Shown here one piece after another: positions 27,354 through 35,758 of a DNA stretch of 64,000 nt. A model generated the notes under the pieces. The model had not been told where the DNA came from, made no database searches, and worked only from the letters and a program-made list of their open reading frames with translations. This stretch comes from Pseudomonadota bacterium (GTDB lineage: Bacteria; Bdellovibrionota_G; JALEGL01; DATDPG01), in the NCBI GenBank assembly GCA_043809315.1, contig JAZDDX010000039.1, forward strand, positions 1-64,000, given 5' to 3'. Position 1 is the first letter of the stretch. The number at the start of each line of letters is the position of its first letter. Made by a program: the position numbers and the translations under genes.

Positions 27354-28139
27354 GTGCGACGCGCGGCCCTCGTTCTGCTCGTCGCGCTTGCTCCTGCCTT
27401 TGCTCGCGGAGAGGGGACGCCGACCCCAGGACCGTTGGAAGACCCGAAACTCACTCCGAAACACCTGATCGGGGATGTCACGGAAGGGGTGTACAACTCG
27501 ACCGCTCACCGCTGGAACTGGCCGGCCATCGGAATCGCCGGCGGTACGGGCCTGGGCGTCTTTCTCCTGAACCGTTGGGTCGACCCGAAGATCGATCAGA
27601 CGAACACTCCTCCCCGCCTCGGCTCGCTCAGCAAAGAGCTATCCCGGGTCGGGCAATTCGGGCCCTACGTCGTCCCCGCGATGTTCCTGGGATCCGGGTT
27701 CCTGTTTCCGAAAGGGAGTCCGGAGCGAGCCGAGGTTTTTCAGACGACGGAGCAGTTGGTTGAAACGTTCCTTTGGACGGCTGGAGCGACCTACGCCCTC
27801 AAGATGGCGGTCGGGAGGATCCGTCCCGATCGGAGCAACGACGGTTCTCTTCCATCGGGGCACGCGGCGTTGACCTTCGGAACCGCCGGCGTGATCGCCT
27901 GGCGTTATCCGTGGTATGTCGGCGTGCCGGCGCTCGCCACCGCGTCGGCGGTTTCATTCTCCCGCGTCGACCTGAACCGCCACTTCGCCTCCGATGTCGC
28001 TCTGGGAGCCGGCCTCGGGCTCTTCTTCTCGTCGGTAGTTCATTTCTACCACGAGCGATTCGAACCGAGCTCCACGACCGCTCTTCTTCCGGTCGTCTCG
28101 AAGGGGAACTACGGCCTTGCCTGGACGACCGATTTTTAG
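27354..28139 (+). CDS. PAP2 family phosphatase
   Basis: K-x6-RP (KMAVGRIRP), PSGH, SRVDLNRHFASD. Confidence 0.88.
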   Translation: MRRAALVLLVALAPAFARGEGTPTPGPLEDPKLTPKHLIGDVTEGVYNSTAHRWNWPAIGIAGGTGLGVFLLNRWVDPKIDQTNTPPRLGSLSKELSRVGQFGPYVVPAMFLGSGFLFPKGSPERAEVFQTTEQLVETFLWTAGATYALKMAVGRIRPDRSNDGSLPSGHAALTFGTAGVIAWRYPWYVGVPALATASAVSFSRVDLNRHFASDVALGAGLGLFFSSVVHFYHERFEPSSTTALLPVVSKGNYGLAWTTDF

Positions 28140-28176
28140 CTCGTCTTGGCCCCATCCCTGTGGAAAACTTCGGGGC

Positions 28177-28626
28177 ATGAAAAGACCATTGATATCGGCC
28201 ATGGCTGTTCTCTGTTTGTCGCTCGGAACGGCGTTGGCGGCATCCACAACCAAAGCGACAACCACTGCAAAGAAAGAGGCGGCAAAGCCGATGACGAAGG
28301 AAGTAACGGAGCTCCAGATCAAGGATCTTAACGTCGGCAAGGGAGCCGCGGCGACCGCCGGGAAGCGGGTTTCGGTCCATTACACCGGGACGCTGACGAA
28401 CGGTACGAAGTTCGACTCTTCCCTCGACCGCGGAACCCCGTTCGAGTTCACGCTCGGCGCGGGAGAAGTGATTCAGGGCTGGGATAAAGGGGTCGCCGGG
28501 ATGAAGGTCGGTGGGAAACGCCACCTCGTCATCCCCCCCTCCCTCGGCTACGGAGCCAACGCCGTCGGGACGATTCCGGCCAATTCGACGCTTGTCTTCG
28601 ACGTAGAACTTCTGGGCGTAAAGTAG
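28177..28626 (+). CDS. Exported FKBP-type peptidyl-prolyl isomerase
   Basis: VHYTGTL.NG.KFDSS, VIQGWD, IPANSTLVFDVELL; signal peptide. Confidence 0.95.
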   Translation: MKRPLISAMAVLCLSLGTALAASTTKATTTAKKEAAKPMTKEVTELQIKDLNVGKGAAATAGKRVSVHYTGTLTNGTKFDSSLDRGTPFEFTLGAGEVIQGWDKGVAGMKVGGKRHLVIPPSLGYGANAVGTIPANSTLVFDVELLGVK

Positions 28627-28695: not shown

Positions 28696-28845
28696 TTACT
28701 TCGCCGCAGGGATCGCGTCGACCGCCTTCGTGGCTGCGTCGTCCGCCTTCTTCAGCGCATCCGCCGCAGTGGTCTCCTGCGCCAATAACGCCGGCGCAAA
28801 GCCTAAGCTTAGGATCGCCGCCGTACCCACAAACACGTTCTTCAT
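28696..28845 (-). CDS. Small secreted Ala/Lys/Asp-rich peptide (49 aa)
   Basis: RBS AAGGGAG; MKNVFVGTAAILSLGFAPALLA signal peptide. Confidence 0.65.
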   Translation of the reverse strand: MKNVFVGTAAILSLGFAPALLAQETTAADALKKADDAATKAVDAIPAAK

Positions 28846-28876
28846 ATCGATCTCTCCCTTTCTTCTTTCTTGATGG

Positions 28877-29887
28877 TTATGGACCGCGCACGGTGAGCTC
28901 GACCCGCCGGTTCGCCCTTCGTCCTGGAAGAGTCGCATTGTCGTTCGCCGGTTTCGTTGGGCCGAACCCCATCGGAACCAGCCGTTCTTCCGCGATTCCG
29001 TGTCGGACCAGGTATTTCCGCACCGTTTGGACCCGCCGCTCCGACAGCTGCTGGTTATACCCGGATTCCCCCGTCGTGTCGGCGTGCCCCCCCACCTCCA
29101 CTTTCGATCCGGGAGATCCTTTGAGCGAAGAAACCAGTTCGTCTAGGGTCGCCCGAGCCTCATTCGTCAACTTGGTCCGATTGAGCTGGAAGTAGATGAT
29201 CTTCGGAGACGGTGTCACCGCTGGCTCGACGGCCGGCGCAACGGTCGGGACCGTGGTCACGGTCGGAACCGGCGTCGATGTTTCAACCGGAGCTACAACG
29301 GGAGCGGCCGTCGAAACCGGTTTCGTTGCGGGCGCCGGGGCCTCTTTGGGGGGCTTTTGGGTCGTCGACCCGCCGAAGTTGAAGAACGCCCCAAAGGTGA
29401 ATTCAAGATTGTGCTGCCACTGGTCAATGATTCCGTTCACGTGGTTCGGAACATACCGACCGTCGACGCGGAACCCTCCGCCGTCGATCACGAACCATTT
29501 TAGGCCCGCACCCACGTTCGGCGCGATGCTCTGCTCGTCGATCGCGGTTCCGAATTGGGTCCACTCGACTCCGAAACCGGCTGTCAAAAACGGACGGAGG
29601 TAGTCGGATGGATTCCGAAAATCATAGAGGAGGTTCCCCCGGAATGAATCGATCGTTCCGTTCGCCCCTGCCGCTGTTTGACTGAATGCCCGCTGGTACG
29701 ACGGTTCGAAGATCCAGTGATCCGTGAGCGAATACGCCAGCCGTCCTCCGAACAACATTCCGCGGTCGGGAGTAGCTGGCGAATACTCATCCAGGAACGA
29801 AAACCCTCCGAAGAAGCCGATCCCGAGATCTCCCTTCCGGTCACCTCCCGCGGATGCGGGACCGGACAGAAGGAGTACGCCCGCCAC
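28877..29887 (-). CDS. OmpA-family protein (beta-barrel, Pro/Thr linker, peptidoglycan-binding domain); natural start probably ATG 29908 with a TGA at codon 2
   Basis: GHADTTG..YNQQLSERR, NRRVE; upstream in-frame ATG TGA TGG GTT CCG CTG GCG GTG. Confidence 0.85.
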   Translation of the reverse strand: MAGVLLLSGPASAGGDRKGDLGIGFFGGFSFLDEYSPATPDRGMLFGGRLAYSLTDHWIFEPSYQRAFSQTAAGANGTIDSFRGNLLYDFRNPSDYLRPFLTAGFGVEWTQFGTAIDEQSIAPNVGAGLKWFVIDGGGFRVDGRYVPNHVNGIIDQWQHNLEFTFGAFFNFGGSTTQKPPKEAPAPATKPVSTAAPVVAPVETSTPVPTVTTVPTVAPAVEPAVTPSPKIIYFQLNRTKLTNEARATLDELVSSLKGSPGSKVEVGGHADTTGESGYNQQLSERRVQTVRKYLVRHGIAEERLVPMGFGPTKPANDNATLPGRRANRRVELTVRGP

Positions 29888-29932
29888 CGCCAGCGGAACC
29901 CATCACATGATCCGGCACCTTTCTCGAGACTG

Positions 29933-30124
29933 CTATGCGAAATCCCGGTCCATGACCGTCTTACGGCCTTCGGACTGGGCTTTCGCGATCGCTTGATCGC
30001 ACAGCATCCGGAGTCGGTCGGACAAAGCTTCGATAACCGCACCCGAGGTGTTCATCTGGGATTTATTCTTGATGTAACCCTTCAGCTTGGACGCAACGAC
30101 GAGGACCTCTTTCTTCTCTTCCAC
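29933..30124 (-). CDS. Bacterial histone-fold protein (Bd0055/HBb-like)
   Basis: EVLVVASKLK.YIK...MNTS..VIEALS......C..A...A..EGRKTVMDRD; histone RKTV..RD motif; RBS GGAG + GTG. Confidence 0.9.
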   Translation of the reverse strand: MEEKKEVLVVASKLKGYIKNKSQMNTSGAVIEALSDRLRMLCDQAIAKAQSEGRKTVMDRDFA

Positions 30125-30184
30125 AAACCACTCCTTTCAAAAAGTGACGTATTTTCCCACAACTCCCGGTTTGGACAAGTTTCC

Positions 30185-30991
30185 TCAGAGGAGGTTCATG
30201 ACGAGCCCGAATTGGGTCGTCGTATCGGTCTTCTTGAACCCGGGAACCGGGACGTTGTCGAAGCGAATTGCGTACCCTGCTTGGAACGCAAGGACATCCG
30301 TCATCTTGAAGGTCAGAGCCGTCAGCGTGTTGATTCGGACGTTCTTCCCTTCCTGCAAATCGAACAGCGTTTCGACGTCCTGGCCGATCACCGAGAGCTT
30401 GTTGATGTTGTACTTATACTGCAGGAACGTCCGCGCCGAATAGATGTCCTGATTCGGCGGTGCCACCCTCCTCTCGTGGGTGTAGTCGAAGCCGAGCTCG
30501 TACTTGAAGAAGTGCGGGTCGGATTTCACGAGTTCATGTGCGAGGCCCAGCGAGGAGCCATAGCGAAGGTCGAATCCGGCCGGCGGATCCGAACCCAAGT
30601 GTCCCAGGGCAAAGAGCGACAACGGGTCGGTGAGGAACCGATCGTAGCGGAGGCTCGTCTTCCCGTTCTTCGTGTTGGTGGTCGAGACCCCTTTCACCTC
30701 GGCCCTTCCGTACGCCCCGTTCGCGGCGAACTCGACCTTGTTCCGTTCCCATTTGTAGGAGGTAAGACCGTTCCCGCCGAGCGTCTTGTTCGAGGAGTTC
30801 CCCGAGTTGATGATCGCGCTTAAACCCGCGTTGGCCTTCCATTCACCCTTTCTCGATTCCGGAACCGGTGCCGGCGCCACTGCCGGTGGCGAAGCCGGTG
30901 CCACCGCCGGAGTCGGAGGCTCTTCGGCCCGGACGGTCGCCCAGGGTGTGAGAAGGAATGCGAGCAGACAAAGGAGCGTCGCCCTTCTCAT
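30185..30991 (-). CDS. DUF481 family outer-membrane beta-barrel protein
   Basis: Signal peptide; SGNS.NKTL, FDNVPVPGFKKTDT. Confidence 0.82.
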   Translation of the reverse strand: MRRATLLCLLAFLLTPWATVRAEEPPTPAVAPASPPAVAPAPVPESRKGEWKANAGLSAIINSGNSSNKTLGGNGLTSYKWERNKVEFAANGAYGRAEVKGVSTTNTKNGKTSLRYDRFLTDPLSLFALGHLGSDPPAGFDLRYGSSLGLAHELVKSDPHFFKYELGFDYTHERRVAPPNQDIYSARTFLQYKYNINKLSVIGQDVETLFDLQEGKNVRINTLTALTFKMTDVLAFQAGYAIRFDNVPVPGFKKTDTTTQFGLVMNLL

Positions 30992-31407
30992 GAGTGCACG
31001 TCGCTCGCGCAGAATTTGCACTTCGTCGCCTCGGCCAGAACGCTCTCCTTGCAGGCGGGGCAGATCTTCATGGCGGGTCCGGGAGCGGCCGGTTTCTCCT
31101 TGATCAGCATTTTGATGATCATGAAAACCACAAACGCCACGATCGCGAAGTCGATCACGTTCCCTAGAAAGTCCCCGACGCCGAACTGGAGCCGGCCGAC
31201 GCCGACCTTCATCGCTCGCCAGTCGCCGCTCGGGGTCAAAACCCCGACGACCGGCATGATAAAATCGTCGACCAGCGCTTTGACCAGTTTACCCACCGCA
31301 GCGCCGATCACGACGCCGACGGCCAGGCCGATCACACCGTGCTTCAAAAGGAACGAATGAAACTCCTCGACCAACTTGAGCTTCGGAGGGGTCACTTTTG
31401 GAATCAT
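30988..31407 (-). CDS. mscL: Large-conductance mechanosensitive channel with a C-terminal zinc-ribbon-like motif
   Basis: EF..FL..GVIGLAVGVVIGAA, LVDDFIMP, GDFL..VIDF; CPAC-x10-CKFC. Confidence 0.9.
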   Translation of the reverse strand: MIPKVTPPKLKLVEEFHSFLLKHGVIGLAVGVVIGAAVGKLVKALVDDFIMPVVGVLTPSGDWRAMKVGVGRLQFGVGDFLGNVIDFAIVAFVVFMIIKMLIKEKPAAPGPAMKICPACKESVLAEATKCKFCASDVHS

Positions 31408-31459: not shown

Positions 31460-32176
31460 CTACAGCAGCGAGAGGATGTTGAACACTCGCGCATGGCGTC
31501 GAAGGGTGAGCGCCTTGTCCGGACGGATCCCCGACATGCTGACAAGCTCAGCCACAGAAGACTTTCGGAGCATCGTGATCGACGCCACGCCGATCGCAAA
31601 GAGGCGCCGTCGGTCGTCCTGTGTGACGCTCTTGTTTTTGCGGATCGCCCGGTAGAAGCCGAGCAGGTTCACGACCGCGCCCGAGTGACCCCGGAACTCA
31701 AGATCGAACGTGGTTCGAACCCCCTCGAAACTCCGTGCCAGTTCGGTGCGCTGGTCGGCCGGAATCTTCCGCGAGCTTCCCTTCACCGCCTTTTTGAGGC
31801 TCCGCTCAAACCGGATCAGCGCGGCCGCGTGGTCGCTTAAGCCCACCTTGCGGGTCTTCCCGATGATCGGGGCGACGACGTACTGGACGATCTCGCAGAG
31901 ATCTTTCGACGCGACGCCGAGTTGCACCGCTTTGAGGTAGCGGAGAACGGGGCGGAGGTGGACCTGGGCGAGCTCCACGAACGTCTCTTTCATCTGATCT
32001 AGGTTTTTCTCTTTCGCTCTCCCCTTCCGTTTCGACTTCGTCCGACTTTTCGTCTTCGGAGCCATCTGGATCTCCTCGAACGCCTTGTCGAGATCGGAGA
32101 AGAAGTCGTCGTTCAACTCCGCTCCGAGGAACGGGGGAACGGTCGGGGGGGTCTCAATACGCAATGTCGGTCTCAT
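31460..32176 (-). CDS. Basic hypothetical protein with a C-terminal helix-hairpin-helix-like region
   Basis: RBS AGGAGG before ATG 32176; KTKSRTKSKRKGRAK; LFAIGVASITMLRKSSVAELVSMSGI. Confidence 0.65.
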   Translation of the reverse strand: MRPTLRIETPPTVPPFLGAELNDDFFSDLDKAFEEIQMAPKTKSRTKSKRKGRAKEKNLDQMKETFVELAQVHLRPVLRYLKAVQLGVASKDLCEIVQYVVAPIIGKTRKVGLSDHAAALIRFERSLKKAVKGSSRKIPADQRTELARSFEGVRTTFDLEFRGHSGAVVNLLGFYRAIRKNKSVTQDDRRRLFAIGVASITMLRKSSVAELVSMSGIRPDKALTLRRHARVFNILSLL

Positions 32177-32313
32177 GTCAGCCTCCTTGGCAGCTTGCAT
32201 TCGTTCAACAGTTTCAACAGCAATTTCAGCGGGAGAAAATGTAATGTAGTGCAATGCGGTGTCAACAGATTCTTTGCAGAGGGGGGCGCTGCATCCATAA
32301 TAGTGCGATCGAA

Positions 32314-32950: not shown

Positions 32951-35758
32951 ATGCGTTTTCGCATGCGCACCTTGGCTTGGTTCTTGAGCGCCCTGGCGAT
33001 TGCCTCGGCATCGCCATTCCTGGCTCGCTCCGCCGAACCGAAGCCCCCCCCAGGCTCCGACGATTGTCTCGCCTGCCACGAAATCGGTGAGGGAACCAAA
33101 AAACGGGAAGCGGGGGTTGCCCCCGTCTTCTCCGCTTCAGCGATCCTCGACTCCCCCCATTCCGCAATCCCTTGCGTCGGCTGTCACAAAGATCTCGAAA
33201 AGGCCGACTTCCCCCACAATGAAAAACTTCTCCCCGTCGATTGCGGCAAGTGCCACCCGGATCAGGAAAAGCAGTACACTGAGAGTTTGCATGGAGTGGC
33301 AGGGAAGCGGGGGGACCGGCTGGCACCGACCTGCAAGAGCTGCCACGGGGGTCACGCGATCCGCCGGAATTCGGACTTGGGCTCTCCCACCAACACCGTG
33401 AACGTCCCGGCTCTCTGCGGTCAGTGCCATCACGAAGGCTCCCCGGTTCAGCTCACGCACAAGATCCACCAGGACAAGATCCTCGAAAATTATACGGAGA
33501 GCATTCACGGGGAGGGGTTGTTTACGAAGGGGCTTCTCGTAACTGCAGTCTGCACAAGCTGCCACACGGCCCACCATGTCCTCCCCCACACCGACCCACG
33601 CTCCTCGATCGCGCAGAAACAGATCGCCAAAACCTGCATGAAGTGCCACGGGCAGATCGAGCGGGTCCATCGGAAGGTGATTCGGGGAGCCCTTTGGGAG
33701 AAGCAGCCGCACCTGATCCCCGCCTGCGTCGACTGTCATTCGCCTCATAAGATCCGGAAGGTCTTCTACGCGCAGGGGATGTCCGATCGGGACTGCCTGA
33801 TCTGTCACTCTCGGAACGATCTTCGGTCCGACCAAGGGATCGACAGCAAACGGCTATACGTGGACGCTCCGGAGCTAGCCGGTTCCCGCCATTCGCGCGT
33901 GGCCTGCGTGCAGTGCCACAGCGGGGCTTCCCCGACTCTCATCCGACCCTGCTCTGCCATCACCGCCAAAGTGGATTGCTCCGCCTGCCATGCCGAACAA
34001 GTTGAAACCTTCAACGACAGCGTTCATGGGAAACTCGCCAAAACGGGAAGCCCGGATGCACCGATCTGCCGCGACTGCCATGGAACTCACGGCACCCTCG
34101 GACGCACGAACTCCGAAGCCCCCACTTTCTCGCGAAATGTGCCGGCTCTTTGCGGCCGGTGTCATCGCAAGGGAGAAAAGGCGGCGGTCCGGTACACCGG
34201 CAGCGAAGTCGGGATGGTCGAACATTACCGGGAGTCGATCCACGGCAAAGGGTTGTTGGAGAGCGGGCTGACCGTCACGGCGACCTGCGTGAACTGCCAT
34301 ACCGCCCACTCCGAAAAGCCGGCCAAAGACCCGACTTCGAGCGTAAACCCGGAGAACATCGCCAAAACCTGCGCCCAGTGCCATCGCGGAATCTACGAGT
34401 TGTTCGCCGCCAGCATCCATTCACCGTCGGTCTCGAAGACGGACCAGAAGCTTCCGACCTGCACCGGTTGTCACACCGCCCATACCATCGGCCGGACCGA
34501 CGTCACCGACTTCCGCCTGCACATCATGGACCAGTGCGGAAACTGCCATGACGAGATCGCCAAGAGCTACTTCGACACGTACCACGGGAAGGTCTCCAAG
34601 CTGGGATACCTCAAGACCGCCAAATGCTACGACTGTCACGGCGCTCACGACACCCTTCCCACTTGGAACCCCAAGTCCCACTTGAGCCGGGCGAACATCG
34701 TGGCGACCTGCGCCCAGTGTCATCCGGGATCGAACCGTCGTTTCGCCGGGTATCTGACCCACGCCACCCATCACGACCCCGCGCGATACCCGTTCCTCTT
34801 CTACACCTTCTGGGGGATGACGATCCTTCTCCTGGGAACGCTGGCCGTCGGTTTCCTGCATACCGCTCTCTGGATTCCGCGATCCATCCAGTTCCGGCGG
34901 GAGCTCCAAAGGATCGAAGAGAAGACGGAGGAAACCCAGTACATCTGGCGGATCCGCCCGTTCTACTCGAAACTCCACCTGCTCGTCATCGTGAGCTTCT
35001 TCGCCCTCGCCCTGACCGGGATGACGCTCAAGTTCTCCTATACCGGCTGGGCCCGTGTCCTTGCGCATCTGTTCGGTGGATTCGAGTCGGCCGGGGTGAT
35101 CCACCGGATCGGGGCGGTCATCACCTTCTTCTATTTCGGCGCCCACCTGTACGATCTCTGTAAGCGCGCCCGGAAAGAGCCGGGAGGATTCCGCGCTCTC
35201 CTTCTGGGTCCGGACAGCATGATCCCGAACCGAAACGATCTCCGAGAACTGATCGGATCGATGAAATGGTTCCTCGGGCGTGGTCCAAGACCTCAATACG
35301 GACGCTGGACCTACTGGGAGAAATTCGACTATTTCGCAGTCTTCTGGGGGGTCGCCATCATCGGCTCGAGCGGCCTTCTCCTCTGGTTCCCGGAGTTCTT
35401 CACGCTGTTCCTTCCGGGTTGGGCGATCAACATCGCCACGATCATTCACAGCGACGAGGCGCTGCTCGCAGTCGGGTTCATCTTCACGGTCCACTTCTTC
35501 AACACCCACTTCCGGCCGGAGAAGTTCCCGATCGACACCGTCATCTTCACCGGGAGGACGCCGCTCGAGGAATACAAGGTGGACCGACCCCGCGAGTACG
35601 AGGAGTTGGTGGCATCCGGGAAACTGGCCGGGAGGCTCGGAGACGCGCCCTCCCCGCACGTCCACCATTTCTGGCGGACGTTCGGGTTCACGGCACTTGC
35701 GATCGGTTTGACTCTGATCGGACTGATCGTGTACGCGACGATCTTCGCGTACCGGTAG
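32951..35758 (+). CDS. 19-heme cytochrome c fused to a C-terminal di-heme cytochrome b (CbcL-like quinol oxidoreductase)
   Basis: 19 CxxCH counted; signal peptide; TM His residues (LHLL, IHRIG, AHLY, IHSDE, VHFF); YWEKFDYFAVFWG. Confidence 0.9.
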   Translation: MRFRMRTLAWFLSALAIASASPFLARSAEPKPPPGSDDCLACHEIGEGTKKREAGVAPVFSASAILDSPHSAIPCVGCHKDLEKADFPHNEKLLPVDCGKCHPDQEKQYTESLHGVAGKRGDRLAPTCKSCHGGHAIRRNSDLGSPTNTVNVPALCGQCHHEGSPVQLTHKIHQDKILENYTESIHGEGLFTKGLLVTAVCTSCHTAHHVLPHTDPRSSIAQKQIAKTCMKCHGQIERVHRKVIRGALWEKQPHLIPACVDCHSPHKIRKVFYAQGMSDRDCLICHSRNDLRSDQGIDSKRLYVDAPELAGSRHSRVACVQCHSGASPTLIRPCSAITAKVDCSACHAEQVETFNDSVHGKLAKTGSPDAPICRDCHGTHGTLGRTNSEAPTFSRNVPALCGRCHRKGEKAAVRYTGSEVGMVEHYRESIHGKGLLESGLTVTATCVNCHTAHSEKPAKDPTSSVNPENIAKTCAQCHRGIYELFAASIHSPSVSKTDQKLPTCTGCHTAHTIGRTDVTDFRLHIMDQCGNCHDEIAKSYFDTYHGKVSKLGYLKTAKCYDCHGAHDTLPTWNPKSHLSRANIVATCAQCHPGSNRRFAGYLTHATHHDPARYPFLFYTFWGMTILLLGTLAVGFLHTALWIPRSIQFRRELQRIEEKTEETQYIWRIRPFYSKLHLLVIVSFFALALTGMTLKFSYTGWARVLAHLFGGFESAGVIHRIGAVITFFYFGAHLYDLCKRARKEPGGFRALLLGPDSMIPNRNDLRELIGSMKWFLGRGPRPQYGRWTYWEKFDYFAVFWGVAIIGSSGLLLWFPEFFTLFLPGWAINIATIIHSDEALLAVGFIFTVHFFNTHFRPEKFPIDTVIFTGRTPLEEYKVDRPREYEELVASGKLAGRLGDAPSPHVHHFWRTFGFTALAIGLTLIGLIVYATIFAYR

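Follow-up and report, generated by a model that had tools for sequence, protein, structure and literature searches.

The window analysed here, a single stretch of 64,000 nucleotides, carries on its minus strand a short coding sequence at 29933..30124, which comprises 63 codons followed by TAG and begins with a GTG at 30122-30124. A Shine-Dalgarno motif, AAGGAG, lies on the same strand at 30131..30136 and is separated from the GTG by a 6-nt spacer (TGGTTT). An earlier note on this DNA had described a 63-aa ORF with its own RBS, and both are indeed present, although the note did not state that the gene lies on the minus strand. The translation carries the strings EVLVVASKLKGYIKNKSQMNTS ... GRKTVMDRD, and the protein, whose pI is computed as 9.25, contains 12 Lys and Arg residues against 9 Asp and Glu and no proline at all. 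Upstream of the GTG the frame stays open for just four codons (67 aa), and the nearest relative has an ATG at the matching position (MDEKKEVLVV), which supports the GTG as the start. An SD-like motif also precedes the chosen start in 36 of 45 related loci among the matches listed.

The gene belongs to a run of genes on the minus strand, identified by Pfam: those for MscL (30988..31407) and a DUF481 protein (30185..31021), then our gene, and then that for an OmpA-family protein (28877..29887). A gap of 60 nt (30125..30184) separates the DUF481 stop from the start of our gene, and one of 45 nt (29888..29932) separates its stop from the OmpA-family start. Scanning both strands of 29500..30600 returned no sigma-70-like promoter site, and no terminator-like site was found in the 45-nt gap 3' of the gene; the three terminator-like rows in the scanned interval represent one site, at 29626-29640, inside the OmpA gene. 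By eye, TTGTCC and GAAAAT can be picked out 16 nt apart in the 60-nt gap, matching at 8 of 12 positions, and we do not claim this as a promoter. An FKBP gene lies on the opposite strand, 1.3 kb from our gene (28117..28626, plus strand). Several other ORFs nearby were recorded in passing. Upstream of mscL, the same strand carries an ORF of 264 aa (31460..32254, minus) that matched no Pfam family at E ≤ 0.001, and a small ORF just 3' of the OmpA gene (28696..28938, minus), likewise Pfam-negative, has a signal-peptide-like start (MKNVFVGTAAILSLGFAPALLAQE...) if read from an internal Met. Further away, in a protein of 935 aa encoded at 32951..35758 (plus), a multihaem cytochrome c (Cytochrom_c3_2, Cytochrome_C7, paired CXXCH) is joined to a membrane part resembling cytochrome b561.

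Searched with phmmer against PDB sequences, the protein matched best to HBb, also called Bd0055, the histone of Bdellovibrio bacteriovorus (8CMP, E 6.1e-13; 8FVX, E 7.8e-13). The next matches were 9QT0 (E 2.4e-09), which is HLp of Leptospira perolatii (PMC12701072), and 9F2C (E 2e-05), given in the Foldseek PDB entry as HTkC of Thermococcus kodakarensis. HBb scored 51 bits against 40 for HLp, and 30 of 57 aligned positions, about 52%, are identical to 8FVX. The curated profiles respond only below their thresholds: PF00808 (CBFD_NFYB_HMF) gave 14.2 bits against a Pfam gathering cut-off of 21.4, and the NCBIfam model archaea_histone (NF043032) gave 16.4 bits against a cut-off of 50, while PF00808 was touched at E ≤ 1 by all 21 aligned relatives. 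Close relatives are named 'hypothetical protein' in NCBI-derived records and, in many JGI records, 'histone H3/H4', because curated profiles miss the class at their cut-offs. An archaeal or eukaryotic nucleosomal histone was rejected on these sub-threshold PF00808 and NF043032 scores and on the Ser (S51) at the position of the tetramerisation histidine. A DUF1931 pseudodimeric histone was rejected as well: the protein is a singlet of 63 aa, and the Pfam search returned no PF09123 match for it at E ≤ 10, whereas 5 of the 21 relatives gave weak PF09123 rows (best E 0.01).

We then compared the residues by which HBb is known to work, mapping positions from the printed HMMER alignments, so that HBb numbering plus three gives the numbering of this protein. 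The DNA contacts reported for HBb are N22, R57, S9, T53, T8, S24, K10, K12, K52 and K16 (Hu 2024, PMC11317129), and nine of the ten are identical here (N25, R60, S12, T56, S27, K13, K15, K55 and K19), with T8 replaced by A11 as the sole difference. The S-K motif, described as a mark of bacterial singlet histones (Hocher 2023, PMC10627809), is present as S12-K13, corresponding to HBb S9-K10. The profile of the 'bacterial dimer' class, a class of α3-truncated histones defined via sequence clustering, includes the α1 lysines K11/K13/K17 (Schwab 2024, PMC11390915); K13, K15 and K19 here correspond to HBb K10, K12 and K16 and keep the same spacing of 2 and 4. The RKT loop and RD clamp (RxTxxxxD) read R54-K55-T56 ... 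D61 and show no variation among the 21 aligned relatives; the clamp pair R51-D58 of HBb is R54-D61 here, and HBb D49 is E52. In total, 19 columns are invariant across the 21 relatives, including S12, K13, K15, T26, S27, R54, K55, T56, R60 and D61.

An AlphaFold2 model of the monomer, built on a 21-row alignment, had a mean pLDDT of 76.5 and helices at residues 11-22 and 28-51. Helix calls end at residue 51, pLDDT falls below 50 for residues 60-63, and α3 is unseen in the model. Since α3 of HBb is itself a single turn (Hu 2024, PMC11317129), its absence from the model is not decisive, and a long α3 would be impossible because just nine residues remain after R54. In a Foldseek search against the PDB, the top five rows were all HBb (TMq 0.74-0.77, prob 1.00, E 1.2e-3 to 7.2e-3), so that no match reached E ≤ 0.001 and the best stood at 1.2e-3. 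VIA-align placed the model on four HBb entries with Z 6.3-6.6 and rmsd 1.0-1.4 Å over 50-53 residues, on HTkC with Z 5.8, and on the best eukaryotic histone-fold chains with Z ≤ 4.5, all within the range below Z 8 that can come from common helical arrangements. For the structural comparison with Bd0055 that the earlier note had proposed, the relevant entry is 8FVX, on which the model superposes with Z 6.6 and an rmsd of 1.0 Å over 52 residues.

The same note had called for a dimer prediction, and here the homodimer scored an ipSAE of 0.66 (0.66, 0.65 and 0.68 in separate runs) against 0.00 for the best of three controls, clearing a threshold that admits 20 of 30 solved homo-pairs and 1 of 23 single chains. 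The runs agreed on 100% of contacts, with partner pLDDT at or above 84. This pass may rest on likeness to the known HBb dimers; because those dimers are already solved, the predicted homodimer should be read as a likeness and not as binding. The phmmer matches, the superposition of the fold, the diagnostic residues and the predicted homodimer all bear out the call of a Bd0055-type histone, and on its sequence the gene encodes an HBb/Bd0055-type bacterial histone, an orthologue of a known family.

The likeness to HBb of B. bacteriovorus HD100 (8CMP, 8FVX, 8FW7, 9EZZ, 9F0E) extends over 57-58 residues at about 52% identity. Both proteins fall in the same length class, without an extra domain, a tail or tetramerisation residues, and they share the S-K motif, the three α1 lysines, the RKT loop and the RD clamp, including an acidic residue at position −2 relative to the clamp Arg. 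They differ in the Thr-to-Ala change noted above, in the N-terminus, charged here and extended by three residues (MEEKKE), in gene context, and at the C-terminus, where our chain ends about one residue past the position of HBb I59-60 and leaves HBb I61 without a counterpart. Compared with the archaeal histones HMfB and HTkA (PF00808), the histone fold, RKT loop and RD clamp are held in common, but our protein has a shorter α2 and a probably truncated α3 and lacks both the sprocket arginine and the tetramerisation histidine.

Relatives of this protein are numerous. A word-indexed search of 5.8 billion proteins yielded 758 candidates, of which 757 were at E ≤ 0.001, and at least 557 relatives occur among 600 pattern matches listed from contigs of a set with one genome per species. 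By NCBI names, the best 80 of these at least 557 loci comprise 46 from Bdellovibrionota, 13 from Myxococcota, 7 from Pseudomonadota and 3 from Planctomycetota, together with one each from three other phyla and 8 that are unplaced. The histone had also been put forward as a hint to the host lineage, a claim that holds in part: the 46 Bdellovibrionota loci among the best 80 favour it, while the 13 from Myxococcota, 7 from Pseudomonadota and 3 from Planctomycetota weaken it. A Bd0055 homologue has been reported as detectable in 67% of Bdellovibrionota genomes (Hocher 2023, PMC10627809). Within our genome set, in which the phylum-level group numbers 17 genomes, all 4 genomes from the family of this one gave a match at E ≤ 0.001. 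So did 7 of 10 from its order, both of the two others from its phylum and 2 of 24 more distant genomes. A search of sequencing runs listed no RNA run, and one DNA run with a 0.14 share of the words.

Very probably, then, this protein is a dimeric nucleoid protein of the α3-truncated 'bacterial dimer' class, an HBb orthologue that bends or coats DNA without sequence specificity. Two chains would pair via their antiparallel α2 helices (approximately residues 28-51) into an obligate homodimer, each end of which would offer an L1-L2 surface made of N25 and S27 together with R54-K55-T56, held in place by the R54-D61 clamp with E52. The start of α1 (S12, K13, K15, K19) would add phosphate contacts that span the minor groove and do not discriminate between bases. 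Such a dimer may bend DNA locally in the manner of HU, or coat DNA at high occupancy; wrapping would not be expected. That the protein binds and bends DNA, is abundant and sits on the nucleoid we infer by homology to HBb, and the abundance of which the earlier note spoke is a property taken from B. bacteriovorus. For HBb itself two in-vitro modes have been described: HU-like bending, seen by TPM, in circularisation assays and in MD, where it amounts to 84 degrees over 36 bp (Hu 2024, PMC11317129), and, at saturating protein, an end-on sheath around straight DNA, on the evidence of a crystal structure with 35-bp DNA (Hocher 2023, PMC10627809). The two modes stand unreconciled, and our data fit either.

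The alternative that survives best belongs to the same family: the protein may instead form an end-on nucleohistone filament that sheathes straight DNA with about one dimer per 2.5 bp. The L1-L2 contact residues of the sheath structure are kept here, and for HBb the 35-bp DNA crystal is accompanied by analytical ultracentrifugation (AUC), which counted over 60 dimers on 147 bp, and by zero FRET between DNA ends (Hocher 2023, PMC10627809). The TPM, circularisation and MD results of Hu 2024 (PMC11317129) speak for bending instead. Moreover, the filament exchanges N-terminal tails between dimers, and it is at the N-terminus that our protein departs from HBb, with MEEKKE and three extra residues in place of MAE; among the relatives, N-termini differ by 0-18 codons. 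We consider the filament unlikely as the main mode, though it deserves to be kept in mind.

The setting of the gene raises a different possibility, that its product acts locally, as a specialised DNA-binding factor transcribed together with the surrounding envelope genes, and is not a global nucleoid protein. The same-strand run with gaps of just 60 and 45 nt would suit such a factor, as would the lack of any promoter or terminator prediction adjoining the gene within 29500..30600. The earlier note had stressed this position among envelope genes on one strand; the description is accurate for this locus, where Pfam confirms the families, but does not hold as a conserved setting. Across 91 related loci, at least two of which duplicate others (identical upstream sequence), MscL was found near the histone in none, DUF481 in none and OmpA in one, and a conserved neighbourhood with these three families was therefore rejected. 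Being unconserved, the envelope-gene setting is uninformative on histone function. The DNA-contact residues, too, are of the kind found in a protein that binds the backbone unspecifically (Hu 2024, PMC11317129), and we regard a local factor as very improbable. A different gene recurs beside the relatives: in 24 of the 91 loci (L016, L018-L020, L023-L025 and 17 more), the gene immediately upstream of the histone, and on its strand, encodes an FKBP-type peptidyl-prolyl isomerase. A lipoprotein-like signal ending in Cys was recognised by eye in at least 17 of these FKBP genes, which makes a functional link to a nucleoid protein unlikely.

A tetrameric, DNA-wrapping face-to-face (FtF) histone like HLp or HTkC was also considered, given the phmmer matches to 9QT0 and 9F2C, the VIA-align Z of 5.8 for HTkC and the placement of both types within one α3-truncated family (Schwab 2024, PMC11390915). 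HLp is a stable tetramer that wraps about 60 bp, and tetrameric FtF histones conserve its residues R49, N53 and R55 (PMC12701072); in profile numbering, R48/N52, the equivalents of HLp R49/N53, are the dimer-dimer residues (Schwab 2024, PMC11390915). HLp (9QT0-9QT2) shares with our protein the histone fold of the α3-truncated family, the A-S-K start of α1 and the RD clamp, but the three FtF positions read K48, E52 and R54 here, so that the R49/N53 interface is missing and the universal clamp Arg alone is kept; the alignment further has a one-residue gap in L1. HTkC (9F2C) gives a fold match with an rmsd of 2.2 Å over 52 residues and is an archaeal protein of the tetrameric FtF class with which ours shares 36% identity. 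A mutant of Bd0055 that wraps DNA required S45F and A48H (Hocher 2023, PMC10627809), and these positions hold K48 and S51 here. Lacking both the archaeal four-helix-bundle residues and the FtF R/N pair, the protein should stay a dimer. Together with the higher score for HBb than for HLp (51 against 40 bits) and the presence of the R, N, R signature on the genome's other histone instead, this makes a wrapping tetramer extremely improbable. Every sequence feature of the HBb-type 'bacterial dimer' class that we checked is present, and the FtF signature is absent. Finally, a chance ORF or dead gene, which might be suspected from the very short length, the GTG start and the scores below Pfam and NCBIfam cut-offs, is already refuted by the conservation data (757 of 758 candidates at E ≤ 0.001, at least 557 relative-encoding stretches in the species genomes and 19 invariant columns, besides a strong SD) and retains a negligible probability.

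The other histone of this genome is encoded on a different contig, at G000:C5:58372-58566 on the plus strand (also recorded as L002:1480-1677). It is 65 aa long and 41% identical to the first; HLp leads its PDB matches (9QT0, E 6.5e-10), and it carries the FtF signature as R51/N55/R57. The genome further contains five PF00216 (HU/IHF) genes above cut-off, which suggests that the histone is an addition to the classical nucleoid proteins and no substitute for them. In the cell, the HBb-type histone would thus act beside five HU/IHF-family genes and an HLp-type second histone. By eye, PilZ-like ORFs flank the second histone gene.

In the 17-genome group, the HBb type was found in 13 genomes and an HLp-like histone in 10; 8 genomes carry the two together, and 15 have one type or both. 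For 9 of the 10 HLp-like genes, those of this genome and eight relatives, the FtF signature was confirmed, and the tenth, in G009, was assigned by E-value alone. G007 and G009 show the HLp-like histone alone, and two genomes, G012 (92% complete) and G014 (58% complete), gave neither type. The two genes are close neighbours in G001, at L004:1495-1689 (minus) and L004:2352-2558 (plus), where about 660 nt with a panD-like ORF separate them. In G004, G008 and G013 (L101:286-528 (minus), L102 and L103), the fold of the HLp-like histone is preceded by a Lys-rich N-terminal tail. Counted from the nearest upstream Met, this tail would be about 20 residues long in G004 and about 30 in the other two; N-terminal tails of bacterial FtF histones have already been described.

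The assignment will be no surprise to a specialist, because the structure, DNA binding and distribution of the family are already published: its structures are solved, a catalogue exists (Schwab 2024, PMC11390915), and a member is expected in this lineage. What the locus adds is one more HBb-type histone, from a small uncultured group related to the Bdellovibrio-like bacteria, and a further case of a class that curated profile libraries still overlook at their cut-offs. The lead worth following is that dimer-type and tetramer-type histones regularly co-occur in the 17-genome group, a co-occurrence of which we found no discussion in the accessible parts of the main bacterial-histone literature. 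We raise tentatively, as a possibility that is somewhat doubtful at present, that the lineage runs a two-histone chromatin in which an HBb-type dimeric bender and an HLp-type tetrameric wrapper would operate atop five HU/IHF genes. Provided that both histones are expressed, the proportion of one to the other could determine how much DNA is bent and how much is wrapped, which would be a bacterial counterpart to the use of histone variants.
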